Origin: an uncultured Thermotogae bacterium
Lineage (GTDB): Bacteria > Bipolaricaulota > Bipolaricaulia > CAYUCE01
Length of the DNA: 64,000 nucleotides
Reading direction: 5' to 3'
Assembly (NCBI GenBank): GCA_964443275.1
Contig: CAYUCE010000002.1
Span: 358-64,357, forward strand
Numbering within the stretch: the first letter of the stretch is position 1; each line of letters begins with the position of its first letter. Below the pieces are notes generated by a model, which saw nothing but the letters and a program-made list of their open reading frames with translations, ran no database searches and was not told where the DNA came from. Positions 4,452 through 56,030 of this stretch are shown here, piece by piece. The position numbers were made by a program, and so were the translations under genes.

Positions 4452-4460
4452 GGTTTTTTG

Positions 4461-34225: not shown

Positions 34226-34546
34226 AAGTTTTGATATAAGCAAGAAACTAGATTGTAGGTCGCAAGTGAACAGAAACTTTCGTGATATGTAGGGCATTTC
34301 CTTCGGGAATCCCGAATCGGTGTGACGGGGCTCCCTCGCTTACGCTCGGTCACACATATGCGCGCACCTCTCTCGGAATTCCCTCGGATGCCCAATGGAT
34401 AGGGAGGAGAGGATAAATTTTTCTTGGAGCTTAAGAATCTGTTTGACGAGCGTTAGCGAGGAGTTATGCAGCGAGGAAGAAAATTTTATCCTCTCCCCTA
34501 AGCGAGCAGTATAGCAAAATAGCTGGAAAGCTTATATCAAAATTTT
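34226..34546. other. Highly structured intergenic element with nested and interleaved inverted repeats (candidate structured RNA or MITE-like repeat)
   Basis: Outer inverted repeat ttttgatataagc (34229-34241) pairs with gcttatatcaaaa (34530-34542). A 20-bp inverted repeat has arms at 34406-34425 and 34477-34496. Hairpin gtgtgac (34320-34326) pairs with gtcacac (34349-34355). The hairpin loop segment 34330-34350 is complementary to 34445-34463. There are also short palindromes gggaatccc and ggaattcc. Confidence 0.4.
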
Positions 34547-34632
34547 AGTCCCCTTTTAAGTAACTTGACAGCCCGATAACTATCCGCTATTATTTTATAT
34601 AATGAAATCTTAATTTTATTAAAGGAAATAGC

Positions 34633-35391
34633 ATGGAGAAGACTCGGAAATCACGAACTGTCCTAAAAGCACTTGAAGTCTTAGAAGAGTTATCCAAGCT
34701 CGAGGAAGGGTTAACAAATGCGGAGCTTTCTCGCCGCCTTGGTCTTCATCCCAGCACCAGTTACCGGCTTCTAAATACTCTGGTCAGCAAAAATTATTTG
34801 AGTAAGGAAAATGGCCTTTACCGGCTGGGACATAAGATCCTGCAGCTTAAGTACTTGGCCCGCCGGGAGGAGAATTTGCGCCAGCGGGCACGTCCCTGGT
34901 TAATCAAGCTGGAGAGTGAAACCGGTTTTACCACAAACTTGGCCATCCTTGATATGCTTAATGCTGTACCGATTGAAATTGTAAGCGGTTCAAAGAATTT
35001 AGTAGTAAACAAAAACCTAGGCAAGCCAGTCCCACTTCATGCCACTGCAGTGGGTAAATGTCTGCTTGCATATCTACCCAAATCTGAGAGAAAAAAGCTC
35101 CTGGCTCAACTGAAACTTCAAAAGTTGACTCCGAAAACTATAACTAAGAAGGAGAAGCTACTTGAAGAGCTTAAAACCATCAAAAGACGCGGGTTTGCGG
35201 TAGATGATGAAGAGTTTGTAACCGGAATAAGATGCGTTGGAGCCCCCATATTTTCAAAGAAGGAAGCCCTAGCTGCCATAAGCGTCTCCAGCTTGTCTTC
35301 TCAGCTAGATGACGACCAGATAGGCAAAGTAGCAAAACAGGTCATTAGGACAGCGAAGGAAATCTCCTATCAGGCGGAAAATATTTCCTGA
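34633..35391 (+). CDS. IclR-family transcriptional regulator
   Basis: N-terminal wHTH (LTNAELSRRLGLHPSTSYRLLNTL) and a C-terminal IclR effector domain. A TTGACA-17-TATTAT promoter-like sequence lies at about 34563-34591. Confidence 0.85.
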   Translation: MEKTRKSRTVLKALEVLEELSKLEEGLTNAELSRRLGLHPSTSYRLLNTLVSKNYLSKENGLYRLGHKILQLKYLARREENLRQRARPWLIKLESETGFTTNLAILDMLNAVPIEIVSGSKNLVVNKNLGKPVPLHATAVGKCLLAYLPKSERKKLLAQLKLQKLTPKTITKKEKLLEELKTIKRRGFAVDDEEFVTGIRCVGAPIFSKKEALAAISVSSLSSQLDDDQIGKVAKQVIRTAKEISYQAENIS

Positions 35392-35405
35392 GGAGGCTAT
35401 TACAA

Positions 35406-36722
35406 GTGACTAACTTTATTAACTTAAAAAACGAACTTCCCGGAAAGAAGTCACAAGAAATCGCCCAAAAGAGAAAGATGTATGTGACTCAAGCCGTGGG
35501 CAAACAATCGCTTTGCCCCGGTTATATTGCCAGTGGTGATGGCGCTTTAGTTACTGACGTAGACGGAAATACCTTTATCGATTTTACCGGGGGTTGGGGA
35601 TGTTTAATTGTGGGTCATACTCCAACCAGAGTAGTGAAAGCAATTAAAGAACAAGCTGAGAAATATCTTCACACGGACTTTTCAGCAGTTCCGTACGAAC
35701 CCTACGTCGAGCTTGCCGAGCGATTGGTTAAGCTGGCCCCCGGCGATTGGCCCAAAAAGGCGGCCTTTTTTAATAGTGGAGCAGAAGCGGTGGAAAATGC
35801 GGTAAAGATATCACGTGCTTACACCGGAAGGAAAGCAGTGATAGTATTCGAAAATGCCTTTCACGGCCGGACACTTCTAACTATGACCATGACCCACAAA
35901 GCCAAACCCTATAAGTACAAGTTTGGCCCATTTGCCTCCGATATCTACCGGCTACCCTATCCCAACTCCTATCGTTCTGATGGAAAATCAAAAGACTGGG
36001 AGCGGGAACTTACTTCTCTGGTCAATCCTGAAGAGGTGGCTTGCTTAGTAATAGAGCCCATACAAGGTGAAGGGGGGTTTTTAGTTCCTCCGGATGGATT
36101 CTTAAAACAATTACGGGATCTGTGTGACAAGTACGGTATCTTGTTTGTAGCAGATGAGATTCAAACCGGTATGGGCAGGACGGGGAAGATGTTTGCTATC
36201 CAACATTGGGACATCGAACCGGACATTATTACAGTAGCCAAATCGCTGGCTGCCGGGCTTCCTCTATCCGGGGTAATCGCCAAAAAAGAAGTCATCGATT
36301 CTCTTATCGAGGGAGCCATCGGAGGTACATATTGTGGAAATCCACTTGCCTGCCGGGCAGCCATCGAGGTCTTAAACCTTATCCAGGAAGAAAATCTCCT
36401 TTCACGAGCCGAAAAAATCGGCAAACAAATAAAGGAAAGATTTACTTCGATGAAGGAAAAGTACGAAATCATAGGCCATATACGGGGTATAGGAGCCATG
36501 GTGGGAATGGAATTTGTTAAAGATAGAGATACTAAGGAGCCTGCTTCAGAGGCTACTTCCCAGATCGTTAAAGATTGTGTTTCACATGGACTGCTTGTTC
36601 CCAGCTGCGGAATTTACAATAACGTAATCAGGTTGCTAGTGCCTTTGGTAATTACCGACTCCCAGCTAAGCGAGGGCCGTGACGTATTGGAAGATGCAGT
36701 CGCTAGAGTTGCAGGAATCTAA
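35406..36722 (+). CDS. Class-III PLP-dependent aminotransferase (GabT/ornithine/putrescine aminotransferase-like), copy A
   Basis: 438 aa. The Lys-PLP region is DEIQTGMGRTGKMFA. The central about 1.1 kb is near-identical to copy B at 48598..49917. Confidence 0.85.
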   Translation: MTNFINLKNELPGKKSQEIAQKRKMYVTQAVGKQSLCPGYIASGDGALVTDVDGNTFIDFTGGWGCLIVGHTPTRVVKAIKEQAEKYLHTDFSAVPYEPYVELAERLVKLAPGDWPKKAAFFNSGAEAVENAVKISRAYTGRKAVIVFENAFHGRTLLTMTMTHKAKPYKYKFGPFASDIYRLPYPNSYRSDGKSKDWERELTSLVNPEEVACLVIEPIQGEGGFLVPPDGFLKQLRDLCDKYGILFVADEIQTGMGRTGKMFAIQHWDIEPDIITVAKSLAAGLPLSGVIAKKEVIDSLIEGAIGGTYCGNPLACRAAIEVLNLIQEENLLSRAEKIGKQIKERFTSMKEKYEIIGHIRGIGAMVGMEFVKDRDTKEPASEATSQIVKDCVSHGLLVPSCGIYNNVIRLLVPLVITDSQLSEGRDVLEDAVARVAGI

Positions 36723-36966
36723 GATTTTTAGAATAGGTTGGTAAGTTAAATACGGAGCAACGCAACCTAGTTCCATTATCTTTCCCATTTACATGATCTG
36801 TTCAACCTAGATGAACGACGATCAGGAAGTTAAGATATCGTACTTATTTTGGTAGCTATCTGTAAACCAATCGCTATCATTGAGATATACGGCTTAACTT
36901 AGGATAGTAAACTTTATGAGTTCCTCCTGGAAGACTAGAATGTGAGATCTGAAAGTGATTAATATC

Positions 36967-37878
36967 CTATTTTCTTCCGGAATCTAAATAACTATCGCCA
37001 TAAAAGATCTGGTGATCTTCCCAGAGCTGCTCCAGCTTCTCCAGATATTGTGTAGAGTCCTCCTTTAGCTTAAGGCTCAATGCTGTCCCGATGGCCCCGA
37101 TAAGACTGATAGGGGCAGTGAATGAATCAATGTACGAGAGAATACGACATTTCCCCAGTAACAAATGATCGGCATGTTCAGCCAGAGGAGAGAATTCACT
37201 ATCGGTGATGACCACTGTTGTTATGTCTTCTCGTTTAGCGGCCTGCAAACATTCCACAATCTCTCGGGAGTATCTGGGGAAGTTTAACCCGATAACCAAG
37301 CTGTTCTCCGACAAGCGGGCCAGTTCGCTATAGAAGACCATTGGGGTTGAGGTTATTGCTTTTACCCCATCTCGGACCCAGCGAAGAACTGTCTCCAAGT
37401 ATTCAGCTAAAGGGGAGAAGATCGTAAAAGCAACAATAACAATCTTATCGGCAGCCAGGATCTTTTCGATGACTTCTCCCACTTCTTCAAGGTCCAGGTT
37501 TTGCAAAGTATCTTCAAGGTTGTGAAGGTCAAGCAACAGGGTCTTCACTACCGGATTGGCCTTGTCTTTCACGTGGGGATGGTATTTCTTTAACCGGTTA
37601 ACGGTGGTGAGCTTGCGTTGTACCAGATCCTGAATCTTCTCCTGCAGTTCAGGATATCCTTCAAAACCACAATCCTTGGCAAATCGCACTACAGTGGATT
37701 CACTGACCTCTGTTATCTCTGCCAATTCAGCCGCAGTCATAAAGGCAACCTGGAGAAGATTGTCCAGTATAAACTTAGCGATTCTCCTCTTCTTACCCGA
37801 TAGCTCTCCCCTTTTTTCTCTTATGAGCGAATCTATATCTTTCAACTTTCCACCTTCCCTATTTAGTTGCAAGTTCAA
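36967..37878 (-). CDS. RpiR/MurR-family transcriptional regulator (HTH_6 plus SIS domain)
   Basis: ITEVSESTVVRFAKDCGFEGYPELQ is the HTH, followed by a SIS phosphosugar-binding fold. It is divergent from the ABC substrate-binding protein gene. Confidence 0.85.
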   Translation of the reverse strand: MNLQLNREGGKLKDIDSLIREKRGELSGKKRRIAKFILDNLLQVAFMTAAELAEITEVSESTVVRFAKDCGFEGYPELQEKIQDLVQRKLTTVNRLKKYHPHVKDKANPVVKTLLLDLHNLEDTLQNLDLEEVGEVIEKILAADKIVIVAFTIFSPLAEYLETVLRWVRDGVKAITSTPMVFYSELARLSENSLVIGLNFPRYSREIVECLQAAKREDITTVVITDSEFSPLAEHADHLLLGKCRILSYIDSFTAPISLIGAIGTALSLKLKEDSTQYLEKLEQLWEDHQIFYGDSYLDSGRK

Positions 37879-37942
37879 TTAAGATTAGCACGTTGTTACA
37901 TGGCTTTCAAGGTTCTACCAACCTATCCACCAATCGCCTTTA

Positions 37943-37958
37943 TGCAAGGAATCTTGCA
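37943..37958. promoter_or_regulatory. Perfect 6-4-6 palindrome TGCAAGgaatCTTGCA (candidate operator)
   Basis: Located 13 nt upstream of the -35 of the consensus promoter, in the RpiR/substrate-binding protein divergent region. Confidence 0.3.
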
Positions 37959-37970
37959 CTCTCCCTAAAC

Positions 37971-37999
37971 TTGACAGAAAAGTTGAATTATGTTATAAT
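37971..37999 (+). promoter_or_regulatory. Consensus sigma-70-type promoter TTGACA-17 nt-TATAAT driving the substrate-binding protein/permease operon
   Basis: Exact TTGACA at 37971-37976, a 17-nt spacer, and exact TATAAT at 37994-37999. It lies about 175 nt upstream of the ATG at 38176. Confidence 0.45.
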
Positions 38000-38175
38000 A
38001 ATTAAAACTATTTTCCAAGAAATTTAAGTCAAGTAAGGATATAGACCCAAGGGAAGTGTAACTTGGCTGATTTTGTAGACGGAGGTGATATATAGTAGAG
38101 ACCTTACTCAACTTATGAGATGTATCAAGACAGAGGAACTAGAATTACAAAAGAAATATAAGGAGGTAGACAGAA

Positions 38176-39750
38176 ATGGCAAAACGTCTAATCACATTTT
38201 TTGTGCTAATTAGTTTACTTGCATTCGCAAATTCTGTTGGTACGCCTCAGTCAGAAAAATATGGCGGAACGGTTCACTTCGGAATTTCCACAACACTTCC
38301 GTCGTTGAACCCCCTTAAAGGAGTAGCACCCTCAACTCGAGGTGGGACTCGGACTATTCTCACAGTTTATCGAGGCTTACTTGGATTTAATTCTGACAGT
38401 GAGTTAGTCCCTGAATTGGCAGAAAGTTACGAAACCTCAGATAATAAAACTTGGGGTTTTCGTCTGCGTGAAAACGCGAAATTTCATAATGGTGAACCGG
38501 TAATAGCCGAAGATGTTAAATTTACATTTGACTGGATTCGTGACCCTGATAATGGTGCTTTTGGCTATCAGTACTTAAAGAGAATTAAAAACACCACAAT
38601 AGTTGATAAGCATACCATAGAAATTGAACTTAAATCTCCAGATGCAACTTTTGCTTCACTGCTAACTCAAGCTTGCGCGGTTATTGTTTCAAAAGACTGG
38701 TGGCAAGATCCCGAAACTAATCCAGACATTGAAATGATGGGTGCAGGACCTTTTAAGTTTGAAGATTTAGTCGAAGGAGTAAAAGTTGTGACCAAGCGAT
38801 TTGACGATTTCTACAAAGAGGGGTTCCCGTACCTAGATAAGATGGTTGTTCACTTCTATCCCGATGAAGAAAGTAGAATTAATGCCTTGCTGGCTGGTGA
38901 TTTGGATATTATAGGTTATCCGCCTTGGAGATACATGAAGAAGATAGATGCTGACCCAAATTATGAATTGGAACTTGCCTCAGGCGTTTTAATGACCGTA
39001 GCTTTCAATCTAACGGTGGAACCTTGGACTAACATAAAAGTTCGAGAGGCCATCAGTTACGCTCTAAAACGCGATGACTACGTAGAAGGTGTTTTCTATG
39101 GCTATGCGGAGCCAATACGGGGCCCTTTGACACCTCCTGACATGAAACAGTGGTATCATGAGGGGCTAGCTGAGTTCTTTGAATACAATCCAGAAAAGGC
39201 AAAGAGACTACTTGCTGAGGCAGGTTATCCTGATGGCTTTAAGACAACAATCTTCTCAAACTATACATATGGGATGTACAAAAGAACCGCAGAAATTCTG
39301 CAAAGACAATTAAAAGAAGTGGGAATTGAAGGGGAACTTGAGCTAGTCGATTGGCCCGAGCAGGTAGAGAGATCCTGGAGCGGTAACTTTACAGGTCTAA
39401 AAGTAATAGGTACACTTTTCTTTTATCCAGATCCTGACTCTTATGTGACCACAATAGGTATTTCTGCAAAGCCTACGTTCGCATCATATGGTATAGAATC
39501 TGGAGATGTCAAAGTTCCGCTAATGAAACAAGCCCTAGAGGAAGCTCGAACTGCCGTAACAACAAAAAAAAGAGACGAATGGTATCGTGCATTCGAAGGA
39601 CTTTTCCTTGCTAAGTTTCTACAGATACCTCTCGTTGGTAGATATGATGGGACTGCTCTGAGTAAACGAGTTCAAAATTACGATCCTCCTTGTGGACAAC
39701 TCACCGGCTTTAGTGCTTTTGCACATGATTATATCTGGCTGGAACATTAA
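38176..39750 (+). CDS. ABC transporter substrate-binding protein, family 5 (peptide/nickel/opine type)
   Basis: Signal peptide, then an SBP_bac_5-like body. Length is 524 aa. Confidence 0.85.
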   Translation: MAKRLITFFVLISLLAFANSVGTPQSEKYGGTVHFGISTTLPSLNPLKGVAPSTRGGTRTILTVYRGLLGFNSDSELVPELAESYETSDNKTWGFRLRENAKFHNGEPVIAEDVKFTFDWIRDPDNGAFGYQYLKRIKNTTIVDKHTIEIELKSPDATFASLLTQACAVIVSKDWWQDPETNPDIEMMGAGPFKFEDLVEGVKVVTKRFDDFYKEGFPYLDKMVVHFYPDEESRINALLAGDLDIIGYPPWRYMKKIDADPNYELELASGVLMTVAFNLTVEPWTNIKVREAISYALKRDDYVEGVFYGYAEPIRGPLTPPDMKQWYHEGLAEFFEYNPEKAKRLLAEAGYPDGFKTTIFSNYTYGMYKRTAEILQRQLKEVGIEGELELVDWPEQVERSWSGNFTGLKVIGTLFFYPDPDSYVTTIGISAKPTFASYGIESGDVKVPLMKQALEEARTAVTTKKRDEWYRAFEGLFLAKFLQIPLVGRYDGTALSKRVQNYDPPCGQLTGFSAFAHDYIWLEH

Positions 39751-39837
39751 CAGGATTTCAAAAGGAAATATGCTTTAACACATGTGTAAACTTTGTACTT
39801 GATATTTTCGGAGCGGAAACTAGAAATAAATACACAT

Positions 39838-39870
39838 ATTCACAGGAGCTTTTCAAAAGCTCCTGTGAAT
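39838..39870. promoter_or_regulatory. Perfect 33-bp palindrome ATTCACAGGAGCTTTT-c-AAAAGCTCCTGTGAAT (intercistronic hairpin or operator)
   Basis: Two 16-nt perfectly complementary arms lie about 90 nt after the substrate-binding protein stop, inside a 430-nt gap before the permease gene. There is no downstream T-run. Confidence 0.35.
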
Positions 39871-40181
39871 ATGTCCTATCGCAAAATTCTTACTAGTGTG
39901 CGAGGCAGACTACTTCCACATTTACACATCGGACCAAAGGTTATTGTAAATACCATCTATACTATGCGGTATTTGACAAGATTACGTTGCCCATTGTTTC
40001 TGTATTCTTTTCTTAAAAGAAATAGATTTAAGAAATGCCAACCTCTGGTATTTTCACCTTTGGAAGGTCCGCTTTCCCAAGAGAAGTTAGCTTTTAAGCC
40101 ACGACTTGTAAGTAAAAAGGAAACCTGCAAAATTCGCTTAAAAATATAGCATTTACATTCGCAAAATGAGGCTGTGAAGCA

Positions 40182-41147
40182 ATGTCGATATATGCATTCA
40201 TAGTTAGACGTTTATTTGTAAGCTTCGGTACAATACTTATCATTACTGTTGTGGTATTTTCCTTTTTACACCTACTTCCTGGTGATCCCGCTCAGATGAT
40301 CCTCGGTGGTGGTACAGAAGGAGGCACTATAAATGAAGAGCAACTACAACGTATCAGACAGGAATTAAATTTAGATAAACCACTGCATATTCAATATTTT
40401 CTCTTTCTAAAAAACGCTCTCCAAGGTAATTTGGGGAAATCCTATTACAACGATCAGCCTGTTTCCAATGTGTTATTAATACGCTTCCAGAGATCATTCG
40501 AATTGGTCATATTGAGTTTTCTACTCGCGGTACCAGTTGGTATATCTCTTGGCGTATTAGCAGGCATACATAGTGGAAGATACCTTAGCACGATTATTGT
40601 TCTACTCTCTGTTTTAGGCATATCTCTTCCTGTTTACGTACTGGGTCCGCTTTTTATAAAAATATTTTCCTTGCAATTAAGTTGGCTGCCAACATCAGGA
40701 TATGTTCTCATAAGTGAGAGTACTGTGAAGCATATACAATCTCTTGTACTTCCGGTAACCACACTGTCTTTGGGCCTAATAGCAATGATTAGTAGAATAC
40801 AGCGATCAAGTCTTTTAGAAGTTCTCCACTCCGAATATATAACCACCGCAAGATCAAAAGGGCTTAATGAAGGGATAGTAATGACCAAACATGCGCTTCG
40901 GAATGCTGTAATCCCCGTTATCTCAATAGGTAGTGTACAATTAGCCCGTTTAGTAGGAGGGACTGTGGTTTTAGAAACCGTTTTTACCTACCCCGGATTA
41001 GGATTGCTACTGAAGGAATCTATTATGAGACGTGATCTACCTGTTATCCTAGGTATTGCACTTCTGGTTGGAATTACTTTTAGCATCATTAACTTACTCG
41101 TTGACTTGGCTTATTGTTTCTTGGATCCCAGGATTAGGTATGATTAA
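40182..41147 (+). CDS. ABC transporter permease (DppB/OppB-like), set 1
   Basis: 321 aa with six TM helices and the EAA-like loop region of the BPD_transp_1 family. Confidence 0.85.
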   Translation: MSIYAFIVRRLFVSFGTILIITVVVFSFLHLLPGDPAQMILGGGTEGGTINEEQLQRIRQELNLDKPLHIQYFLFLKNALQGNLGKSYYNDQPVSNVLLIRFQRSFELVILSFLLAVPVGISLGVLAGIHSGRYLSTIIVLLSVLGISLPVYVLGPLFIKIFSLQLSWLPTSGYVLISESTVKHIQSLVLPVTTLSLGLIAMISRIQRSSLLEVLHSEYITTARSKGLNEGIVMTKHALRNAVIPVISIGSVQLARLVGGTVVLETVFTYPGLGLLLKESIMRRDLPVILGIALLVGITFSIINLLVDLAYCFLDPRIRYD

Positions 41148-41997
41148 TCTTAAACAGGAATTATGCAATAAAATGAAACTTTTACGTGATTTCCGTGTTA
41201 CTATAAGCTCGATAATTATCCTCGCCTTGCTACTGTTATCTCTCTTGGCACCAGTTCTTCCAGTAAGAGATCCCTTTGAGATGAATTTCTCGAATATGTT
41301 AGAGGGACGAAGCAGCAGTTTTTTACTAGGTACAGACGAATACGGTCGTGATTTGTTAAGCAGGATACTATACGGCACAAGAGTAACCCTTTCAGTAGCT
41401 TTTGCAGCTACCACTATTGCGGCAATTCTTGGTTGCTTACTTGGTATATGTTCAGCATATTTTAGAGGATGGTCAGAAACATTCCTTATGCGAATTACAG
41501 AAGTTCTGGTATCATTTCCTCCCGTTTTACTGGCAATGATAGTGGTTGGACTTTGGGGACCGGGGATGAGAAATTTAATTCTAAGTATAGGAGTAATTCA
41601 TTCTCCTATGTTTGCCCGACTGAGCTACGGAGTAACCAAATCAGAGCGAGAGAGAGAGTACGTTAAAGCCAGCAAATCATTGGGAGCATCAAATACTTGG
41701 ATAATTGCTAAAGTGTTGTTACCCAACATCGCAGCACCTATCATTGTGCAATTTGCAGTCAACTTTGCTTGGGCAGCTCTTCTTGCTGGAGGCCTGAGTT
41801 TCCTTGGATTAGGGATCATTCCTCCCCGGCCTTCGCTTGGAAATATTCTTGCAGGTGCTCGCAGTTATATGGCCTTGAACTGGTCATATTTTCTCTGGCC
41901 TGCTGTTGTACTTGGCACTCTAATAACGGCTGTGAATATTTTAAGTGAAGGGTTGCGCGAAGCGCTGGATCCAAAGCAGCGGGGGTCAATTGTCTGA
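41140..41997 (+). CDS. ABC transporter permease (DppC/OppC-like), set 1
   Basis: Track ORF is 41056..41997. The likely start is the ATG at 41140, which overlaps the upstream stop. It has an OppC-type N-terminal domain and TM helices. Confidence 0.8.
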   Translation: MINLKQELCNKMKLLRDFRVTISSIIILALLLLSLLAPVLPVRDPFEMNFSNMLEGRSSSFLLGTDEYGRDLLSRILYGTRVTLSVAFAATTIAAILGCLLGICSAYFRGWSETFLMRITEVLVSFPPVLLAMIVVGLWGPGMRNLILSIGVIHSPMFARLSYGVTKSEREREYVKASKSLGASNTWIIAKVLLPNIAAPIIVQFAVNFAWAALLAGGLSFLGLGIIPPRPSLGNILAGARSYMALNWSYFLWPAVVLGTLITAVNILSEGLREALDPKQRGSIV

Positions 41998-42090
41998 TAA
42001 ATGCATAAAGGTAGATGCGTGGTATTTATAGATGTAGTGGGGAAAGCAGGCGAAGATTAGATATGAACGTAAAGATAAAAGGAGGTAGAC

Positions 42091-42771
42091 ATGCAAAATC
42101 TCAAGGAAAAACGAGGAGATCAAACCTACGAGACATATCAATCGATTTCAGTAGATTACATAAAAGGTGGATATCTTGATGGCACAATCGGCTTTGGAGC
42201 AAAGCCAGCAATTATTGTTATTGATTATCAAAAGGCGTTTACTACTTTTGAAGCGACTCTAGGCACAAGTGACTTAATCCAACAAGGAGTTGAAAATACA
42301 GCCATTCTTCTAAAAGAAGCTAGGAAAAAAGGAGTGCAGATTTTCTTTACCAATGTTGCCTGGAGAGAAGATAGGAAAGATTTTGGGATGTGGAAGGGTA
42401 AAATGACACAATGTCTAAAAGAGGCTACTTTGGGTACTTGGGGCGTAGAAGTAGATGACAGACTAAAAATGGAAGACGGCGATATTTTCTTCTACAAAAA
42501 GTGGCCCTCAGCTTTCCATGGCACGCCTCTCAGCACTTATTTAACCACAAAGGGAATTGATACTTTAATCGTAACTGGCTGCACCACCTCCGGATGTGTT
42601 AGGGGAACAATCTATGATTCTTTCTCTAGTGGTTTTAGAACCATCGTTCCTTATGGCTGCGTAGGTGACATAATTCAATCTGCACATGAGCAAAATCTTG
42701 CAGATATCCATAAGAGATATGCCGATGTTCTCCCATTAGAAAAGGTTATTACCTATATACGTGAGCTTTAG
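42091..42771 (+). CDS. Isochorismatase-family cysteine hydrolase (N-carbamoylsarcosine amidase / RutB-like)
   Basis: Catalytic-triad context IIVIDYQKAF ... LIVTGCTTSGCVRGTIYD. Length is 226 aa. Confidence 0.75.
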   Translation: MQNLKEKRGDQTYETYQSISVDYIKGGYLDGTIGFGAKPAIIVIDYQKAFTTFEATLGTSDLIQQGVENTAILLKEARKKGVQIFFTNVAWREDRKDFGMWKGKMTQCLKEATLGTWGVEVDDRLKMEDGDIFFYKKWPSAFHGTPLSTYLTTKGIDTLIVTGCTTSGCVRGTIYDSFSSGFRTIVPYGCVGDIIQSAHEQNLADIHKRYADVLPLEKVITYIREL

Positions 42772-42957
42772 TAATTTCTAGCAATTTCTCTGTAAAGATG
42801 TTTAAATCATGTCTTTGAATCCATGATTATAGTAAGAATATATAGAAGTTGAGAAGTGAGACAATAAGTTTTCGTAAAGGAAAGTCATGTATGATTATAC
42901 TTTTGCAGAATTTTTGCTTCCAACTGAGAATTTTAAGATCTAGCGAAAGGAATATTT

Positions 42958-44421
42958 ATGTATGGAGAAAGAAACTTCTTATCCTCTGAGCGGCCCTATC
43001 TCCGTGTTCTCTCAGAAAAACAGTTAGAGAATCTCCATTTTGCTTCTCTGCGCGTGCTGGAGAGAACGGGGATGATTTTTAACTCTTCTCAAGCTGTTGA
43101 CCTGCTTCTTTCGGCCGGTGGCCGAAGAGTTGAAGGAAATAGAATTTCGATTCCTTCTCATTTAATTGATAAATCTCTCAAGAGCGCGCCTAAGCAAATA
43201 AGGATTAGTGATCGAGAGGGTGATTCCATGATGCTCCTATCGGGCCACAATGTCTATTACGGTACTGGGTCCGATCTTCCTAGTGTCATTGATCCATATT
43301 CCGGTGAGAAGCGTGCCTCATTAGCAAAAGATGTGGGTAACTTCGCCAGGGTCTGTGACTATTTACCAAACATTGATTTTGTGATGTCTATGGCACTGGC
43401 TTCCGATCACCCTGTGGAAGTAGCCGATTTATATCATTTTTTACAGATGGTTAGCAATACGACGCTGCCCATACTCTTTACTGCTTCTAATCGTGAAAGT
43501 TTAGAATACATTTACCAAATGTGTCTGGCCATAAGGGGTAGCGAACAAGCATTGACAAAAGAGCCCTTTATAATTCACTATGCCGAACCTAGCAGTCCAC
43601 TACAGCATAGTAAAGATGCTGTTGACAAACTTCTTTTCTGCGCGAAGCACGGAATTCCGGTCACTTATCCATCCGGAACTTCTCTCGGAGTTACCGCCCC
43701 AGTCACTATCGCCGGTGCTATGGTTATGGCAAACGCAGAGTTTCTTGGTGGACTCGTTTTAAGTCAACTAACACAGGAAGGGGCTCCCATCATTTACGGT
43801 GGTGGGAATTCAGCGATGGATATGCGCACCATGGCGTATCTCTATGCAGCCCCCGAAAATTGGCTTAATGGAATGATAGTCCGGGAACTATCCTCCTACT
43901 ATAGGTTACCATGTTTTGGGGAAGGTGGCTGCGGTGATGCTAAGACCTTCGACCAACAAGCAAGTAGTGAGGCCACAAGCACATTGTTAGTTACTAGTCT
44001 GATTGGTACAAACCTTATACATGATGTGGGATACATCGAGTCAGGCAAGACAGGTTCCTATGGAATGCTTTTGCTATCTGATGACGTTATTGGACAAATT
44101 AAACGTTTTCTCCGTGGGGTCGAGGTATCGAATGAAACCCTAGCAGTAGAAGTATTAGACAGAGTTGGACCAGGAGGTAATTTTCTCACCGATCAACATA
44201 CTCTAAACCATTTTAAGGATTCAATTTATAATCCAAATTATTTTGATCGCCAAACCTTTAGTCAGTGGGTAAAACAAGGCAAAAAAGCACTTGGTCAAGT
44301 ATTGAACGAGAAAGCTAGATGGATTTTGGAAAATCATGAACCTAAACCTTTACCAGAAGGAGTTAAGCAGAAGATAAATACCATCATTCAAAAAGCCGAG
44401 GAACAAAGGGAAAGAACGTAA
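42958..44421 (+). CDS. MttB-superfamily (trimethylamine/quaternary-amine:corrinoid methyltransferase-like) protein, non-pyrrolysine
   Basis: The N-terminus LSEKQLENLHFASLRVLERTGMIF matches the family start. The core GIPVTYPSGTSLGVTAPVTIAGAMVMANAEFLGGLVLSQLT...YGGGNS...DAK...VSNETLAVEVLDRVGPGGNFL aligns along MttB/MtgB. A Cys/Gly sits at the position of the UAG/Pyl residue of true MttB. No corrinoid protein or RamA-like activase is in the window. Confidence 0.7.
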   Translation: MYGERNFLSSERPYLRVLSEKQLENLHFASLRVLERTGMIFNSSQAVDLLLSAGGRRVEGNRISIPSHLIDKSLKSAPKQIRISDREGDSMMLLSGHNVYYGTGSDLPSVIDPYSGEKRASLAKDVGNFARVCDYLPNIDFVMSMALASDHPVEVADLYHFLQMVSNTTLPILFTASNRESLEYIYQMCLAIRGSEQALTKEPFIIHYAEPSSPLQHSKDAVDKLLFCAKHGIPVTYPSGTSLGVTAPVTIAGAMVMANAEFLGGLVLSQLTQEGAPIIYGGGNSAMDMRTMAYLYAAPENWLNGMIVRELSSYYRLPCFGEGGCGDAKTFDQQASSEATSTLLVTSLIGTNLIHDVGYIESGKTGSYGMLLLSDDVIGQIKRFLRGVEVSNETLAVEVLDRVGPGGNFLTDQHTLNHFKDSIYNPNYFDRQTFSQWVKQGKKALGQVLNEKARWILENHEPKPLPEGVKQKINTIIQKAEEQRERT

Positions 44422-44467
44422 TAACATTCTTGTATGATTTTGTGAACAACTAAAAGGAGGATATAAA

Positions 44468-45451
44468 TTGGAAAATGCTTTTGATTTTGTGAAACTTCAT
44501 GCAGGTTGGGATGAGTGTATATTGATTTTTGGGGAGCAATTGCCCAAAGGTGAAGAGCTTAACATTAGCTTATCTCTATTAAAGAAACCAAGCATTGGTG
44601 GAACGGAGGTTGGAATCCTCTATCCTCCTAACGATTCAGGGGATATCAGGGTTAAGATAGTTGATGCTACCAGCAATAGCTATATACGAATGTGTGGAGG
44701 ACTCACACAATCTTTAGGAAAAGCCATTGTTGAAACCAATATCGGTGAAAAGCTAGGGATAACGATACCTGATGGAACGCAAGAAGTCCTATTAGAAACA
44801 GATGCCGGGCTTATTCCCATTGAAATCGAGGTTCAAAATCACATCACCCGGAAGGTAGTCACTAAAATGGATTCTTACCTTACTGATTGTTATGAACGTG
44901 GAGTTGAGTTGGAAAAACTAGATGGAATGTCCGTGGTAGATGTCGGTATTAATGAGGAAGAAAAGGAGTTTTTGGTTATCGATATTGAAGAGCTATCGAG
45001 ACGGTTCTCTAAAGTTAATTTTTTTAAGAGGGAAGAGGCTGCTCTGAATATCTTAGAAGAGGTTTACCGCAAGTTTCTCAGTTCACGCGAAATGTCTTTG
45101 AAATATTTATATGGTGCCCTATATCAGCTTAAAGAGTCAGGGGCAGAAAAGAGGATTCAAACTGTATTCCGCTTCTTTCCATGGGATTATTCACCAGGGG
45201 ATAATTTGGAGTTCGCTTGCGGTACTGGGACAATAGCCATTGGTATCGCCATGTATGAGCGCGGACAGATAGATTTTTCTGATGGAACTGAAAACTTATT
45301 TTTAACCGTTGGTGGAAAACACCTTCCCTCAGGAACAAGAGCGAAAACTCACTTACAACTGGAGGGTACGAAGCAGGGGATAACAAGTGCCCGATTTAGC
45401 CATGACCGTATTGAAATAGTAGCCAGTGGCAAGATCTACATTACTGCATGA
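44468..45451 (+). CDS. DapF-fold PLP-independent amino-acid racemase/epimerase family protein
   Basis: N-terminal FDFVKLHAGWDECILIF matches DapF FSKMHGLGNDFMVV. Two catalytic-Cys motifs are present: RMCGGLTQS and EFACGTGTIAIGIA. The second matches the SPCGTGTSA motif of proline racemase. Confidence 0.5.
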   Translation: MENAFDFVKLHAGWDECILIFGEQLPKGEELNISLSLLKKPSIGGTEVGILYPPNDSGDIRVKIVDATSNSYIRMCGGLTQSLGKAIVETNIGEKLGITIPDGTQEVLLETDAGLIPIEIEVQNHITRKVVTKMDSYLTDCYERGVELEKLDGMSVVDVGINEEEKEFLVIDIEELSRRFSKVNFFKREEAALNILEEVYRKFLSSREMSLKYLYGALYQLKESGAEKRIQTVFRFFPWDYSPGDNLEFACGTGTIAIGIAMYERGQIDFSDGTENLFLTVGGKHLPSGTRAKTHLQLEGTKQGITSARFSHDRIEIVASGKIYITA

Positions 45452-45577
45452 TTTTTCCCTCTAGACGCTGCTAAGACTGAGTTAGTAGCATGGCTATTAA
45501 CAAATCCGAAATAAATATTAGTAGAAAGAAACGATGCTCAGTAACTGCTAGAGCGATAGCAAAGTGTAGGTGATCAA

Positions 45578-46504
45578 ATGGGGATCACCCAATATTTCAT
45601 AAGACGTTTACTGTTAATCATTCCAGTAATACTGGTGGTTTCAGTAGTTAATTTCTCGATGCTCCATTTGGCCCCAGGTGATCCTGTACGGGTAATGGTT
45701 AACCCTCGAATGGGTGAGGAGGCCATTCAACAAAAACGCAAAGAGTTGGGATTGGACAAACCACTCTTTATTCAATATTTGAACTTTATGAAGAGGATAA
45801 TTACAGGCAACCTGGGACGCTCAATCTACACCAGGGAGCGTATCGAAGCTATGATACTGCGGCGTCTATCAAACACATTAATCTTGGGAATCACTGCTCT
45901 CACTCTGGCTTTTCTTATTGCAATACCTTTTGGTACTTTGGCTGCGAAATACCGTGGAAGGTTACTAGATTACGCTTCTATGTTTGCAGCCCTTGTTGGC
46001 CTTTCTATGCCCCAATTTTGGCTGGGGCTAGTACTAATGCTGGTGTTTGCAATAAAACTTGGGTGGTTCCCAGTGGCTGGTTACGGAGACTTAAGACATC
46101 TTGTGCTTCCCGCTATCACCCTTGCTGCATATTTTACAGGTCTTATGACCCGATTGAACCGTTCTAGCTTGCTGGAAGTGATGGGAAAAGACTACATGTT
46201 TACCGCCCGAGCCAAGGGACTTTCTGAGGTAACTGTGCTTTTCAAACACGGACTGCGTAACTCTTTGACTACCGTAATTTCCTTCTTGGGATTACAGGTT
46301 GGCTGGCTAGTAGGGGGAGCGGTAATGGTGGAATTCGTTTTTAATAGGCCGGGGTTGGGAAGATTGATCGTACAATCCCTTTATCGGCGGGATTATCCGG
46401 TAATACAGATTCTTTTACTTATTCTGGTTACCTCAGTTATATTGGGAAATTTACTAGCCGATCTATGCTATGCAACGGTCAACCCAAAAATTAGATATAA
46501 ATAG
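45578..46504 (+). CDS. ABC transporter permease (DppB/OppB-like), set 2
   Basis: 308 aa paralog of the set 1 permease, with six TM helices. Confidence 0.85.
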   Translation: MGITQYFIRRLLLIIPVILVVSVVNFSMLHLAPGDPVRVMVNPRMGEEAIQQKRKELGLDKPLFIQYLNFMKRIITGNLGRSIYTRERIEAMILRRLSNTLILGITALTLAFLIAIPFGTLAAKYRGRLLDYASMFAALVGLSMPQFWLGLVLMLVFAIKLGWFPVAGYGDLRHLVLPAITLAAYFTGLMTRLNRSSLLEVMGKDYMFTARAKGLSEVTVLFKHGLRNSLTTVISFLGLQVGWLVGGAVMVEFVFNRPGLGRLIVQSLYRRDYPVIQILLLILVTSVILGNLLADLCYATVNPKIRYK

Positions 46505-46515
46505 GGTCAGTTGCC

Positions 46516-47334
46516 ATGCGAGTACTTAAACATAAGCAGATAATTTTTGGAGGCGGGGTAATACTGGTCTTTTGCACGATAGCGATACTCGCTCCTTATA
46601 TTATCCCTTATCACTATTGGGAGCAGGATTTAATGGAGTCCCTACACGAGCCTAGTGGAGAGCACTTCTTTGGTACGGATAATTTCGGGCGTGATGTCTT
46701 TAGCCGAGTTGTTTATGGAACACGAATATCACTTATTTCCGCGCTGGGAGCTGCAGGAGTTGCTTCTATAGTGGGATTAACTCTGGGGTTGTTGGCCGGT
46801 TATTTAGGAGGAGCGGTGGATCGAGTTGTCCAAACGGCAATTGACGTATCCTGGTCGTTCCCCACAGTACTATTGGCTATTTTGATTGCATCAGTAGCAA
46901 GCCCGGGATTGAGCTCCACTATTATCGCCATTGCAGCCGTGTATTGGGCACAATATGCGCGGGTAATCCGGGGAGAGGTTTTATCAGTAAGGGAGGAAGA
47001 GTACGTACACGCCGCCAAGAGTATCGGCTGTACGGAGGTCAGGGTAATGGCTCGCCATGTGTTTCCCAACGTGGTCCCCCCGATGATAGTGATGATAAGT
47101 ATCACCATGGGATACGCTATATTACTAGAAGCAATGCTAAGTTTTTTAGGTGTCGGAGTTCAACCTCCCACTCCTAGTTGGGGAATCGTTCTCTCCGAAG
47201 GGCGTGATTTTCTGACCAGAGCCCCCTGGATAACCCTCTTTCCAGGCATGATCATTTCCCTAGCCGTTCTAGCTTTCAATTTCCTTGGTGATGGACTGAG
47301 GGATTACCTCGATCCATATATGAAGCGGATATGA
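46516..47334 (+). CDS. ABC transporter permease (DppC/OppC-like), set 2
   Basis: 272 aa with an OppC-type TM arrangement. Confidence 0.85.
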   Translation: MRVLKHKQIIFGGGVILVFCTIAILAPYIIPYHYWEQDLMESLHEPSGEHFFGTDNFGRDVFSRVVYGTRISLISALGAAGVASIVGLTLGLLAGYLGGAVDRVVQTAIDVSWSFPTVLLAILIASVASPGLSSTIIAIAAVYWAQYARVIRGEVLSVREEEYVHAAKSIGCTEVRVMARHVFPNVVPPMIVMISITMGYAILLEAMLSFLGVGVQPPTPSWGIVLSEGRDFLTRAPWITLFPGMIISLAVLAFNFLGDGLRDYLDPYMKRI

Positions 47335-47571
47335 GAGATAGCACTTGAAAACGTAGATAACTTGGTTAGGAAACGGGGGCTTAGAGTTTTATAACCCAGT
47401 AAGTGATATAGGCGATATCATTTGGGATCGATCTTTCACGAGTATAGCTTCTTAATTAAGTCTATTTTATTTCTGGCAGTTGAACAGTTGTTTAAAGATG
47501 AGGATATGAAAAAACCGTGGGATTTCTTGAAAGATAAATCAAATTAGGTTCTAAAAAGGAGTAAATATAGA

Positions 47572-48504
47572 ATGAAAAACAGAATGAAAGGTAGAGATTT
47601 TTTAACTTTAATGGATTACACTAAAGAGGAGATAACCTGGATTTTAGAGTGCGCAGATGAATTAAAACGTTCTTGGGCTAAGGGTGAACCTCATGAATAT
47701 CTTAGGGGAAAAACTGTTGCCGCTCTGTTTGAGAAGCAGTCCACCAGAACCCGTACCTCCTTTCAAGCTGGAATGGCTCATTTAGGAGGTCAAAGCTTCT
47801 ATATGAGACCTGATGAGCTTCAGCTAGGACGTGGGGAGCCCATTAAGGACACAGCTAGAGTAATTGATCGCTACTGTGATGCCCTGTTTATTAGAACTTA
47901 TGGACAGGAGATAGCGGAGGAGTTTGCAGAGTACATGAAAAATCCGGTTATCAACGCCTTGACCAATTTAACTCATCCTTGCCAGGGGCTTGCGGATCTT
48001 TTAACTATTAAGGAAAAAAAGGGAGGATTTAAAGATCTAAAGTTAGCTTACACGGGCGCTGTCTCTAACGTATGTCATAGCCTCATGATAGGAGGAACCA
48101 TTATGGGGATAGATGTTTACGTGGCTAGACCAGAAGGTTATGATCCTGACCCCCGCCCGTTAAAATTTGCTGAAGAGAAGGCCAAAGGCTCGGGGAAAAA
48201 TCTTATTGTTACAGATGATCTAAACGAAGCAGTAAACAACGCGGATATAGTTTATGCCGATGCTTGGCATGCTATGGGAACTAAGGATAAGGAGCAAAAA
48301 GAAGAGAATTTTTTGCCTTTTCAGATAAATGAAGAAGTGTTAGCCCTGGCAAAAGATGACTTTATCTTTATGCATTGCCTGCCTGCATATAGAGGGAAAG
48401 AGGTAACTGAGATGGTAATCGAAGGTCCGCATTCAGTGGTTTGGGATCAAGCGGAAAATAGGATGCACACGGAGAAGGCGATATTAGCGTTGCTTGTTCA
48501 ATAA
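47572..48504 (+). CDS. Carbamoyltransferase of the OTC/ATC family (ornithine or putrescine carbamoyltransferase, catabolic context)
   Basis: STRTR motif (FEKQSTRTRTSFQAG) for carbamoyl-phosphate binding, plus HPCQ and HCLP motifs. Length is 310 aa. Confidence 0.85.
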   Translation: MKNRMKGRDFLTLMDYTKEEITWILECADELKRSWAKGEPHEYLRGKTVAALFEKQSTRTRTSFQAGMAHLGGQSFYMRPDELQLGRGEPIKDTARVIDRYCDALFIRTYGQEIAEEFAEYMKNPVINALTNLTHPCQGLADLLTIKEKKGGFKDLKLAYTGAVSNVCHSLMIGGTIMGIDVYVARPEGYDPDPRPLKFAEEKAKGSGKNLIVTDDLNEAVNNADIVYADAWHAMGTKDKEQKEENFLPFQINEEVLALAKDDFIFMHCLPAYRGKEVTEMVIEGPHSVVWDQAENRMHTEKAILALLVQ

Positions 48505-48597
48505 CCGGAGGGTAAGTTATTTATTTACAGTTATATTAATCGTAATTGGTTATGGAATTGGGAACTACCAATGAAGAAGATCGAAAGGAGGATTTAG

Positions 48598-49917
48598 ATG
48601 TCTACTCGACCTAGTTTTATCTCTTTTAGCACCTGTTCCCCTGGCCCAAAGTCAAAGGAAATTGCCAAGAAGAGAGAGAGGTTTGTAACTAATGCATTGG
48701 GCAGGCAATCTCTTTGTCCCGGTTATATTGCCAGTGGTGATGGCGCTTTGGTCACCGACATAGACGGAAATACCTTTATCGATTTTACCGGGGGTTGGGG
48801 ATGTTTAATCGTCGGTCATACTCCAACCAGAGTAGTGAAAGCAATTAAAGAACAAGCTGAGAAATATCTTCACACGGACTTTTCAGCAGTTCCGTACGAA
48901 CCCTACGTCGAGCTTGCCGAGCGATTGGTTAAGCTGGCCCCCGGCGATTGGCCCAAAAAGGCGGCCTTTTTTAATAGTGGAGCAGAAGCGGTGGAAAATG
49001 CGGTAAAGATATCACGTGCTTACACCGGAAGGAAAGCAGTGATAGTATTCGAAAATGCCTTTCACGGCCGGACACTTCTAACTATGACCATGACCCACAA
49101 AGCCAAACCCTATAAGTACAAGTTTGGCCCATTTGCCTCCGATATCTACCGGCTACCCTATCCCAACTCCTATCGTTCTGATGGAAAATCAAAAGACTGG
49201 GAGCGGGAACTTACTTCTCTGGTCAATCCTGAAGAGGTGGCTTGCTTAGTAATAGAGCCCATACAAGGTGAAGGGGGGTTTTTAGTTCCTCCGGATGGAT
49301 TCTTAAAACAATTACGGGATCTGTGTGACAAGTACGGTATCTTGTTTGTAGCAGATGAGATTCAAACCGGTATGGGCAGGACGGGGAAGATGTTTGCTAT
49401 CCAACATTGGGACATCGAACCGGACATTATTACAGTAGCCAAATCGCTGGCTGCCGGGCTTCCTCTATCCGGGGTAATCGCCAAAAAAGAAGTCATCGAT
49501 TCTCTTATCGAGGGAGCCATCGGAGGTACATATTGTGGAAATCCACTTGCCTGCCGGGCAGCCATCGAGGTCTTAAACCTTATCCAGGAAGAAAATCTCC
49601 TTTCACGAGCCGAAAAAATCGGCAAACAAATAAAGGAAAGATTTACTTCGATGAAGGAAAAGTACGAAATCATAGGCCATATACGGGGTATAGGAGCCAT
49701 GGTGGGAATGGAATTTGTTAAAGATAGAGATACTAAGGAGCCTGCTTCAGAGGCTACTTCCCAGATCGTTAAAGATTGTGTTTCACATGGACTGCTTGTT
49801 CCCAGCTGCGGAATTTACAATAACGTAATCAGATTACTGGTGCCTTTGGTAATTACCGACTCCCAGCTAAGCGAGGGCTTGGACGTGTTAGAGGAGGCGA
49901 TCTCCAGTATTGCTTAA
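48598..49917 (+). CDS. Class-III PLP-dependent aminotransferase, copy B
   Basis: 439 aa. Identical to copy A between QSLCPGYIASGDG and VITDSQLSEG. The termini are divergent. Confidence 0.85.
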   Translation: MSTRPSFISFSTCSPGPKSKEIAKKRERFVTNALGRQSLCPGYIASGDGALVTDIDGNTFIDFTGGWGCLIVGHTPTRVVKAIKEQAEKYLHTDFSAVPYEPYVELAERLVKLAPGDWPKKAAFFNSGAEAVENAVKISRAYTGRKAVIVFENAFHGRTLLTMTMTHKAKPYKYKFGPFASDIYRLPYPNSYRSDGKSKDWERELTSLVNPEEVACLVIEPIQGEGGFLVPPDGFLKQLRDLCDKYGILFVADEIQTGMGRTGKMFAIQHWDIEPDIITVAKSLAAGLPLSGVIAKKEVIDSLIEGAIGGTYCGNPLACRAAIEVLNLIQEENLLSRAEKIGKQIKERFTSMKEKYEIIGHIRGIGAMVGMEFVKDRDTKEPASEATSQIVKDCVSHGLLVPSCGIYNNVIRLLVPLVITDSQLSEGLDVLEEAISSIA

Positions 49918-50037: not shown

Positions 50038-50997
50038 ATGGCAAATAAAAATAAGGCTCAAGATAGGATAGTGATAGCTGTAGGAGGAAATGCCATCCTT
50101 AAGCCCGATCAACCGTGGTCGGCTAAAAGGCAACTGGACAATATAAAGACTACCTGCAAGCAACTGGGAGAGATAATCATAAAGGATGGATACCAACCAG
50201 TCCTCACCTACGGAAACGGCCCCCAGGTAGGCAACATCCTTCTTCAAAACGAAATTGCCAAACAGAAAGTTTCGCCGATGCCTCTGGATATTTGCGGAGC
50301 CCAGAGCCAGGGGCTTTTGGGTTATCTGCTAAGTAAGGAACTAAGAGGTGTTTTGGAAGAAAACGGCTTGCGAGATTTTCAAGTGATCTCGGTGATAACC
50401 CAAACTTTGGTAAGCTCAGATGATCCCGCCTTCACCAATCCCACCAAACCTATTGGTCCTTTCTACTCCCGAAAGGAAGCTGAAAAGCTAAAAAAAGAGA
50501 GAGGTTATCAAATTACCCAAGATGCTAACCGCGGTTGGCGTCGGGTGGTCCCCTCCCCCGATCCCATAACAATTGTGGAAAGTCCGGTGATAAAGCATCT
50601 GGTGGATAAAAAAGTCATAGTCATTGCTTCCGGTGGAGGAGGTGTACCGGTTACCAAAGAAGATGGGCAACTTATAGGTAAAGAAGCAGTTATAGATAAA
50701 GACCTGGCTGCCTGTAAGTTAGCTTGTGACATCAAAGCCAGAACCCTGCTTATTTTAACCGATGTCCAGCAGGTGATGCTCGATTACGGCACCAGCAAGG
50801 CGAGGGGAATCGAGCGGATGAACCTAGAGGAAGCAAGAAAATATCTGGATGAGGGCCACTTCGCCGCAGGCAGCATGAAACCCAAAGTAAAAGCCTGTAT
50901 TAAATTCGTTGAAAATGGCGGTCAAAAAGCGATAATTACTTCTTTGGATAAAGCCATACAAGGACTTTCCGGAAAAGCTGGTACCACTATTTATTAA
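50038..50997 (+). CDS. arcC: Carbamate kinase
   Basis: Likely start is MANKNKAQDRIVIAVGGNAIL at 50038; the track ORF begins at 49945. Carbamate-kinase/amino-acid-kinase fold, 319 aa. Confidence 0.8.
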   Translation: MANKNKAQDRIVIAVGGNAILKPDQPWSAKRQLDNIKTTCKQLGEIIIKDGYQPVLTYGNGPQVGNILLQNEIAKQKVSPMPLDICGAQSQGLLGYLLSKELRGVLEENGLRDFQVISVITQTLVSSDDPAFTNPTKPIGPFYSRKEAEKLKKERGYQITQDANRGWRRVVPSPDPITIVESPVIKHLVDKKVIVIASGGGGVPVTKEDGQLIGKEAVIDKDLAACKLACDIKARTLLILTDVQQVMLDYGTSKARGIERMNLEEARKYLDEGHFAAGSMKPKVKACIKFVENGGQKAIITSLDKAIQGLSGKAGTTIY

Positions 50998-51928: not shown

Positions 51929-52006
51929 CTCTACTATGCTGCTTCGCAGCTCTCTGCTTCGCAAGCTTCGCAGAAGCGTAGAAGAGGTCGTAGAAGCGAA
52001 GAAGAG
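51929..52006. repeat. Left copy of an inverted repeat of about 79 bp (cttcgc/gcgaag-rich) flanking the Lol-like cassette
   Basis: ctctactatgctgcttcgcagctctctgcttcgcaagcttcgcagaagcgtagaagaggtcgtagaagcgaagaagag equals the reverse complement of 56138-56216, apart from one indel and a few mismatches. Confidence 0.6.
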
Positions 52007-55315: not shown

Positions 55316-55365
55316 TTGTTATTCCATCCTTTCATGCTCCCGTTATTCACGGACTTCTCTTTCTA

Positions 55366-55983: not shown

Positions 55984-55992
55984 TTTGCATAT

Positions 55993-56030
55993 CACATGAC
56001 TAAGTAGTCATGTGACCATTGAGTCACATT
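55993..56030. promoter_or_regulatory. Two overlapping operator-like palindromes upstream of tetR
   Basis: CACATGACTA-ag-TAGTCATGTG (55993-56014) and ATGTGAC-cattga-GTCACAT (56010-56029) lie immediately upstream of the tetR start. Confidence 0.4.

Follow-up and report, generated by a model that had tools for sequence, protein, structure and literature searches.

How two genes of one family can differ clearly at both ends and yet be identical over a long shared interior is the question raised by a pair of aminotransferase genes from an uncultured bacterium of the Bipolaricaulota. The window, by which we mean the whole stretch of DNA that was analysed, comprises 64,000 nucleotides (nt) of contig CAYUCE010000002.1 (assembly GCA_964443275.1). 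The two genes, called here copy A and copy B, are found at the following positions:

35406..36722, + strand, aminotransferase copy A: 438 amino acids, GTG start, TIGR00700; last gene of a two-gene unit with an IclR-family regulator
48598..49917, + strand, aminotransferase copy B: 439 amino acids, ATG start; between the ornithine carbamoyltransferase and carbamate kinase genes

The explanation that we favor, with a probability of roughly 0.82, is that ectopic gene conversion (concerted evolution) keeps the interiors of two old paralogues identical. The process is a known one, and the locus is one more example of concerted evolution of bacterial paralogues that involves no new mechanism.

The limits of the repeat were defined by BLASTN and by direct comparison at a fixed offset; a general repeat finder returned just one 300-nt piece of it. 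When the window was compared with itself by BLASTN, a check proposed in the first-pass annotation, a single long repeat was recovered at the very loci where that annotation had reported a near-identical direct repeat with copies about 13.2 kb apart. It is the sole long repeat within the window. The two matching stretches are offset by 13,201 nt and align over 1,250 nt at 97.36% identity (33 mismatches, no gaps), and the longest run without mismatches reaches 1,019 nt:

35448..36697, + strand, copy A repeat arm in the BLASTN self-comparison (partner 48649-49898)
48649..49898, + strand, copy B repeat arm in the BLASTN self-comparison (partner 35448-36697)
35613..36631, + strand, perfect tract of copy A: 1,019 nt, no mismatch at offset 13,201; no synonymous substitution per synonymous site (dS = 0) over 234.7 synonymous sites
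48814..49832, + strand, perfect tract of copy B: no mismatch against the copy A tract

Shuffling the 33 mismatches over the 1,250 nt produced a gap of at least 1,019 nt in none of 200,000 permutations (analytic P ~2e-23). The interval 35521-36680, previously described as essentially identical to its partner, contains 12 mismatches in 1,160 nt (35549, 35552, 35555, 35559, 35609, 35612, 36632, 36635, 36638 and 36678-36680), i.e. 98.97% identity. The description is therefore good at that level, and the identity is not much lower than it had looked by eye, but the strictly identical part is about 140 nt shorter than claimed. Homology covers the whole of the two coding sequences and ends at their borders (35406-36722 and 48598-49917). 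Counted per 50 nt, identity is 74-96% at 35450-35650, 100% at 35650-36600 and random again after about 36700; beyond both coding sequences it amounts to 14-40%, which is the random level, and the neighboring genes are unrelated.

The repeat also accounts for a pair of antisense open reading frames (ORFs) that had been noticed earlier:

36161..36499, - strand, antisense ORF of 112 amino acids, inside the perfect tract (twin at 49362-49700)

These two frames do translate identically, as had been stated, because both lie wholly within the perfect tract. Their interpretation as genes was rejected, as the matching antisense frame has internal stops in two relatives (contigs L082 and L085); they are a by-product of the repeat.

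Both aminotransferases match TIGR00700 over their full length (523.7 and 524.1 bits, cut-off 506.65) and are assigned to PF00202 in precomputed annotations, and their best solved structure is the PuuE gamma-aminobutyrate (GABA) aminotransferase 6wj8 (E = 1e-123, aligned residues 18-435). By these matches, both genes are classified as class-III pyridoxal phosphate (PLP)-dependent aminotransferases of the GABA-aminotransferase subgroup. The full-length PF00202/TIGR00700 match likens them to GabT and PuuE of Escherichia coli (6wj8, 1sff; PLP fold type I, class III), but they score under the cut-offs of stricter equivalog models, and NF005376 is not reached (564, cut-off 676). Their surroundings also depart from the classical gab/puu operons: in the window they consist of carbamoyltransferase and carbamate kinase genes, and in relatives of DDAH-type genes, MttB modules and amidase genes. 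This context points to a putative role in ornithine-, citrulline- or other omega-amine-linked catabolism rather than to one of the gab/puu type. In a collection of 5.8 billion proteins, copies A and B form a 90% cluster of exactly two members, from a single NCBI contig, and the next relatives have 78, 77 and 74% protein identity. The copies share all residues from position 53 of A to 14 before its end; with identical catalytic cores, the two enzymes most likely have the same catalytic properties and would differ in their regulation. The codon usage of both is typical of the host (relative synonymous codon usage (RSCU) r of 0.72 and 0.77, GC content at third codon positions (GC3) of 0.44-0.45).

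The divergence between the copies is distributed in tiers. It was measured codon by codon with the Nei-Gojobori method, in zones set after seeing the data (pS, proportion of synonymous differences; dN, non-synonymous substitutions per non-synonymous site):

35406..35516, + strand, unconverted 5' end of copy A (partner 48598-48717): old divergence, 3-codon length difference
35448-35516, outer 5' zone: 75% nt identity, pS 0.56, dN 0.19
35517-35612, inner 5' zone: 94% nt identity, dS 0.26, one Val/Ile change
35517..35612, + strand, 5' mosaic edge (partner 48718-48813): 6 mismatches, 5 synonymous and 1 Val/Ile
35613-36629, core of 339 codons: 100% identity, dS 0 over about 235 synonymous sites, no non-synonymous change
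36630-36677, inner 3' zone: 94% nt identity, dS 0.29, no non-synonymous change
36632..36677, + strand, 3' mosaic edge (partner 49833-49878): 3 synonymous differences in 3 consecutive codons, then 39 identical nt
36678-36713, outer 3' zone: 61% nt identity, pS 0.79, dN 0.32
36678..36722, + strand, unconverted 3' end of copy A (partner 49879-49917): C-termini and stop positions differ

Synonymous divergence is saturated in the outer ends (dS at least 1). Upstream of 35448 the proteins still align, with a length difference of three codons, and the different termini announced in the first-pass annotation were found at both ends (N-termini over about 37 residues, with the three-codon difference, and C-termini over about 13). 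In the first 90 aligned nt, A and B are 58% identical, no closer than either copy is to the relatives, and across the unconverted ends they share 25 of 49 residues, either copy being about equally close to relatives with 76-80% identical core proteins. Since the ends of A and B are as diverged from each other as from such relatives, the duplication is old. The core is 60-81% identical per 90 nt to the three nearest relatives (L082, L083 and L081), i.e. 19-40% different. Because the relatives vary freely across the nucleotides of the core, the latter is not intrinsically invariant.

These observations bear on two explanations that dispense with conversion. Purifying or codon-level selection might hold the core identical without recombination, and alignment to 6wj8 places the cofactor-binding and catalytic regions of the protein in the core; yet relatives at 74-78% protein identity differ at 19-40% of the core nucleotides, and protein-level selection cannot freeze some 235 synonymous sites. 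Since the synonymous sites are homogenised as well, while relatives vary there, selection on the protein is ruled out, and the likelihood that we leave to selection of any kind is negligible, the smallest of all the explanations considered. Alternatively, the whole gene could have been duplicated recently, and both of its ends, which are the least conserved segments of the protein family, could then have diverged rapidly or been replaced. Nevertheless, mutation cannot act so differently within one gene as to produce saturated ends next to 0 differences over 235 synonymous core sites; four separate end replacements would be needed; and the homology stops exactly at the coding sequences, unlike that of fresh segmental duplications (14-40% identity per 50 nt outside). 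We consider this scenario extremely improbable. The earlier proposal of gene conversion rather than whole-gene duplication is right, because only recent copy-correction inside an older duplicate explains saturated ends around 339 codons that show no difference between the copies and vary in relatives. A perfect tract of 1,019 nt is embedded in 1,250-1,317 nt of homology with flanks at dS 0.27 to more than 1; its synonymous sites are homogenised, with 0 differences at about 235; and the core, 100% identical between A and B, shows 60-81% nucleotide and 74-78% amino acid identity to the nearest relatives in the 5.8 billion proteins and two contig collections.

Gene conversion would proceed as in the model developed for the tuf genes (PMC5485169), from which we infer that a break or gap in one copy may be repaired from the other by non-reciprocal, intrachromosomal homologous recombination. 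Conversion tracts would usually stop short of the limits of homology; the gene ends would escape correction and diverge, and the convertible region would shrink progressively, with saturated outer ends, mosaic edges and a perfect core of 1,019 nt as the expected outcome. The perfect tract of copy A (35613-36631) is the most recent conversion tract. At the 5' edge, clustered differences, most of them at third codon positions, are interspersed with identical patches of 32 and 49 nt, and the 9 differences of both edge zones are clustered in adjacent codons (P ~0.003, with zones defined post hoc), leaving patches of 32, 49 and 39 nt between them. Since the edge differences are clustered and mosaic and the ends are as diverged from each other as from relatives, recurrent, long-running conversion with erosion of the edges would fit better than one event. 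Conversion between copies already at about 70% nucleotide identity would moreover be very inefficient, which favors continuous homogenisation over a single late event. A single older conversion as the cause of the inner zones (dS ~0.27) was also considered; the clustering (P ~0.003) weakens it, in a way that is only suggestive given the post hoc zones.

The reliability of the contig has to be weighed at this point. The leucyl-tRNA synthetase of the organism has a best match at 65%, and its named matches are Bipolaricaulota/Acetothermia at 55-57%; scans of genome and metagenome contig collections gave best matches at 64% and 67% protein identity and no close relative. The organism belongs to an uncultured, poorly sampled lineage, and the contig, although no record states it, is probably metagenome-assembled. 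Independent sequence exists for parts of the window: one Logan contig (L164, from SRR7048218) is 100% identical to 42550-47983, outside the perfect core, and another (L165, from SRR7048220) is 100% identical to 34474-35506 and ends 10 nt before the first shared 32-nt stretch. Look-ups of the exact products of the carbamoyltransferase, the carbamate kinase and the RpiR-family regulator returned no records.

Several facts weigh against our interpretation. Exact-product look-ups found no contig on record with a complete copy of either aminotransferase, so that the strict 100% identity, the pairing of flanks across the core and the copy number of one for the block between the genes are the word of one assembly, and an assembler that collapses near-identical paralogues could overstate 99% as 100%. 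In a phylogenetic comparison of flanks and tract, by which the flanks would group by orthology and the tract by genome, the ends of A and those of B were about equally distant from all relatives (over only some 50 residues and with no close orthologue pair). Finally, recurrent and single conversion are not rigorously separable with just 9 differences in edge zones that were defined post hoc.

Taken further, these facts could mean that the repeat is an assembly artefact, similar but non-identical cores having been merged into one graph edge traversed twice, or the path through the repeat having been mis-resolved. In the latter case the true arrangement might be IclR regulator, aminotransferase and carbamate kinase with a separate 13.2-kb circle, or another copy number of the block. 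The probable metagenomic origin of a contig from so deep and uncultured a lineage, the halt of the independent k-mer assembly of SRR7048220 at 35506, the lack of a recorded contig with either complete gene and the composition of the block between the copies, which is the most atypical of the window, are all compatible with an artefact. However, a contig that ends before the shared stretch and the lack of a complete gene on record are expected of a k-mer assembler at such a repeat, and the assembler of the window did separate the copies at differences spaced 30-50 nt from each other. The contig contains all four unique-to-core junctions, each in an intact reading frame, so at least two loci with different 5' and 3' ends must exist in the sample, whatever their linkage. 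The block contains no replication, integrase or transposase gene that a free circle would call for. Moreover, conversion would still be the conclusion if the true core identity were about 99%, a level that remains a signature of conversion against flanks at dS of at least 1. We therefore regard an artefact as unlikely.

Gene conversion with a comparable outcome is well documented in the tufA and tufB genes of Salmonella enterica, in which it is RecA-dependent, produces tracts that are >96% contiguous and aborts where homology ends (Paulsson et al. 2017, PMC5485169; earlier Abdulkarim & Hughes 1996, as cited there). As in the window, these are two protein-coding paralogues of about 1.2 kb on one chromosome, near-identical through non-reciprocal homologous recombination, with contiguous tracts that tend to miss the ends of homology and whose ends are shaped by mismatch repair. 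The tuf genes, however, are 762 kb apart, inverted, essential and highly expressed, and their RecA dependence is experimental, whereas the genes of the window are 13.2 kb apart, direct and of a catabolic type, and their mechanism is read from sequence alone. A survey of prokaryotes (Wang & Chen 2018, PMC6053082) demonstrated concerted evolution in 26 genes, and it mentions no aminotransferase. The rRNA operons, amoA/amoB, haoA and psbD (PMC6053082; PMC8022953) resemble the present case in that paralogues within a genome are closer than orthologues at synonymous and non-synonymous sites; they differ in being mostly subunits of stable complexes with recurrence across many genomes, whereas the window represents one genome. 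The locus would thus offer a clean case of concerted evolution of a metabolic enzyme, with visible erosion of the edges, in a little-known uncultured lineage.

A perfect direct repeat of 1,019 nt would also be a good substrate for unequal homologous recombination. A deletion is predicted to remove 13.2 kb and leave the IclR regulator, a chimeric aminotransferase (N-terminus of A and C-terminus of B) and the carbamate kinase; the alternative predicted product is a tandem amplification of the transporter/MttB/carbamoyltransferase block. The nearest precedent on record is found in E. coli B, in which recombination between manB and cpsG repeatedly deletes 23,293 bp with the rfb cluster and leaves a chimeric phosphomannomutase gene (Maddamsetti & Orman 2026, PMC13626634). 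In both cases highly similar direct paralogues bracket a multigene cluster, but the E. coli deletions were seen repeatedly in evolution experiments while the deletion or amplification in the window is only predicted. The main value of the repeat may lie in the warning that it gives for assembly and annotation and in the prediction of a specific structural polymorphism. It flags a spot at which contig assembly, the copy number of the block and inferences based on binning or coverage should be checked. Likewise, a phylogeny or substrate prediction based on one or the other aminotransferase will mislead, because their histories are not independent.

The origin of the second copy leads to the block that both genes bracket and to its immediate neighbors:

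34633..35391, + strand, IclR-family regulator: ends 14 nt before copy A; promoter-like site at 34565-34593
36723..48597, unstranded, intervening block, bracketed by copies A and B (Pfam and NCBIfam assignments)
47572..48504, + strand, ornithine carbamoyltransferase: TIGR00658 at 393 bits (cut-off 281), directly upstream of copy B
50038..50997, + strand, carbamate kinase: TIGR00746 at 403 bits (cut-off 358), downstream of copy B; 79% identity with the gene that follows the aminotransferase in L082

The block starts with an RpiR-family regulator gene on the minus strand, which follows copy A and is convergent with it, and continues with a family-5 solute-binding protein, two permeases, an isochorismatase-family hydrolase, an MttB-family methyltransferase, a weakly proline-racemase-like protein, two more permeases and the ornithine carbamoyltransferase. 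It contains two peptide-type ABC transporter modules, and the label of catabolic block that it had received appears plausible from these assignments. Its tetranucleotide correlation (0.88) is the lowest of the window (0.95-0.97 elsewhere), its median RSCU correlation is 0.415 against 0.67 (P = 6e-5) and its GC3 is 0.375 against 0.46 (P = 0.002). Atypical codon usage extends across 36967-48504 and is strongest at 38176-45451, where GC3 is 0.32-0.38, against about 0.42-0.49 for the majority of genes outside the block. This suggests that the block, or most of it, was horizontally acquired, although four membrane-protein genes may add to the deviation. No mobility family was found among the scanned genes of the block (Pfam, NCBIfam), scans of the window detected no tRNA gene or Rfam match, and no inverted repeat was found in 30000-55000; the repeats that bound the block are the aminotransferase genes themselves.

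The gene contexts of the relatives are informative in this respect. In L082 the aminotransferase (78%) is followed by carbamate kinase (79%), and in L081 a permease (52% to the last permease of the block) and two DDAH/ADI-family genes precede the aminotransferase (74%). In L085, a JGI contig of 17.3 kb, a GntR regulator is followed by an aminotransferase (65%), permeases (74% and 71%), a binding protein, an M20 peptidase, MttB (77%), a proline-racemase-like protein (65%) and a further MttB. L166 (GCA_964424795.1) carries GntR, an aminotransferase (67%), an FmdA/AmdA amidase, MttB (69%) and a proline-racemase-like protein. Judged by these contigs, there are precedents for both positions: that of copy A, behind a regulator and heading an MttB module, and that of copy B, beside genes of carbamoyl-phosphate/citrulline type. 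Two aminotransferase copies that bracket a block were seen in no relative examined. Copy B was at first taken for the ancestral locus, a view that was abandoned because the aminotransferase heads the MttB module in L085 and L166. With precedents on both sides, neither position is preferred as the ancestral locus or as the probable donor of the core.

One scenario for the second copy is that the block was acquired horizontally with its own aminotransferase and integrated next to or into the resident gene by homologous recombination, the incoming copy being overwritten afterwards by the resident one. This history still requires conversion; in addition, it would explain where the second copy came from and which way the transfer went. 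Codon usage is atypical and GC3 low in the block genes, whereas both aminotransferases look native, and the two modules may each have brought a copy, one heading an MttB/proline-racemase-like module behind a regulator as in L085 and L166, the other beside carbamate kinase or DDAH-type genes as in L082 and L081; the MttB relatives are also 77-90% identical, against 65% for leucyl-tRNA synthetase. Nevertheless, one crossover alone cannot yield an identical core, the unconverted ends of both copies resemble the same subgroup (L081-L083), down to a shared two-residue insertion, part of the compositional deviation may come from the four membrane-protein genes, and the block is devoid of mobility genes. 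We hold such an acquisition to be possible, if somewhat improbable. A more specific proposal would be that the two genes once served an MttB/proline-racemase-like methylated-amine module and a citrulline/carbamoyl-phosphate module, that conversion overwrote one catalytic core and merged the pathways on one enzyme, and that the maintained repeat also turned the apparently foreign 13.2-kb block into a cassette that can be reversibly excised or amplified and varies in copy number within the population; this is a doubtful proposition. Whatever the origin of the block, ectopic conversion between two old paralogues remains our preferred explanation for the identical core.

A conserved module was observed in three unrelated contigs (L085 5981-17292, L166 6015-14382 and window 42091-45451). 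It consists of a regulator, a class-III aminotransferase, an amide hydrolase whose family differs between the contigs (M20, FmdA/AmdA or isochorismatase-like), a non-Pyl MttB-family methyltransferase and a weakly proline-racemase-like protein of about 327 amino acids. A literature search for the combination of MttB, carbamate kinase and aminotransferase found no paper. In L085, a DDE_3 transposase and an rve-type integrase (1890-2480 and 3723-4733) lie on either side of a carbamoyltransferase gene just before the GntR/aminotransferase/MttB cluster, which hints that the module moves between genomes.

Some minor features of the neighborhood deserve mention. The carbamate kinase ORF, as mechanically called, starts at a TTG at 49945, and relatives are homologous from the ATG at 50038 onward (MANKNK...); the true start is probably the latter, which leaves a gap of 120 nt after copy B. 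The ORF of the second permease (41056-41997) overlaps the first by 92 nt, and its start is probably later. In the divergent region between the RpiR gene and the transporter operon, a perfect match to a sigma-70-type promoter (37971-37999, 12/12: TTGACA, 17 nt, TATAAT, extended TG) precedes the transporter block. A perfect 19-bp hairpin (39834-39874, -28.9 kcal/mol, z = -10.4) is located between the genes for the solute-binding protein and the first permease, inside a spurious 118-amino-acid ORF (39793-40149); in a simple scan it is terminator-like on the minus strand only, and it may cause the genes of the transporter operon to be expressed at different levels. Farther downstream, an inverted pair of 79-nt intergenic repeats, 95% identical, is found at 51929-52006 and 56138-56216. 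Neither a significant RNA fold (z ~0) nor an Rfam match was found for these repeats, which bracket a minus-strand segment (52049-55995) that runs from FtsX-like permease genes to a TetR-like regulator gene.

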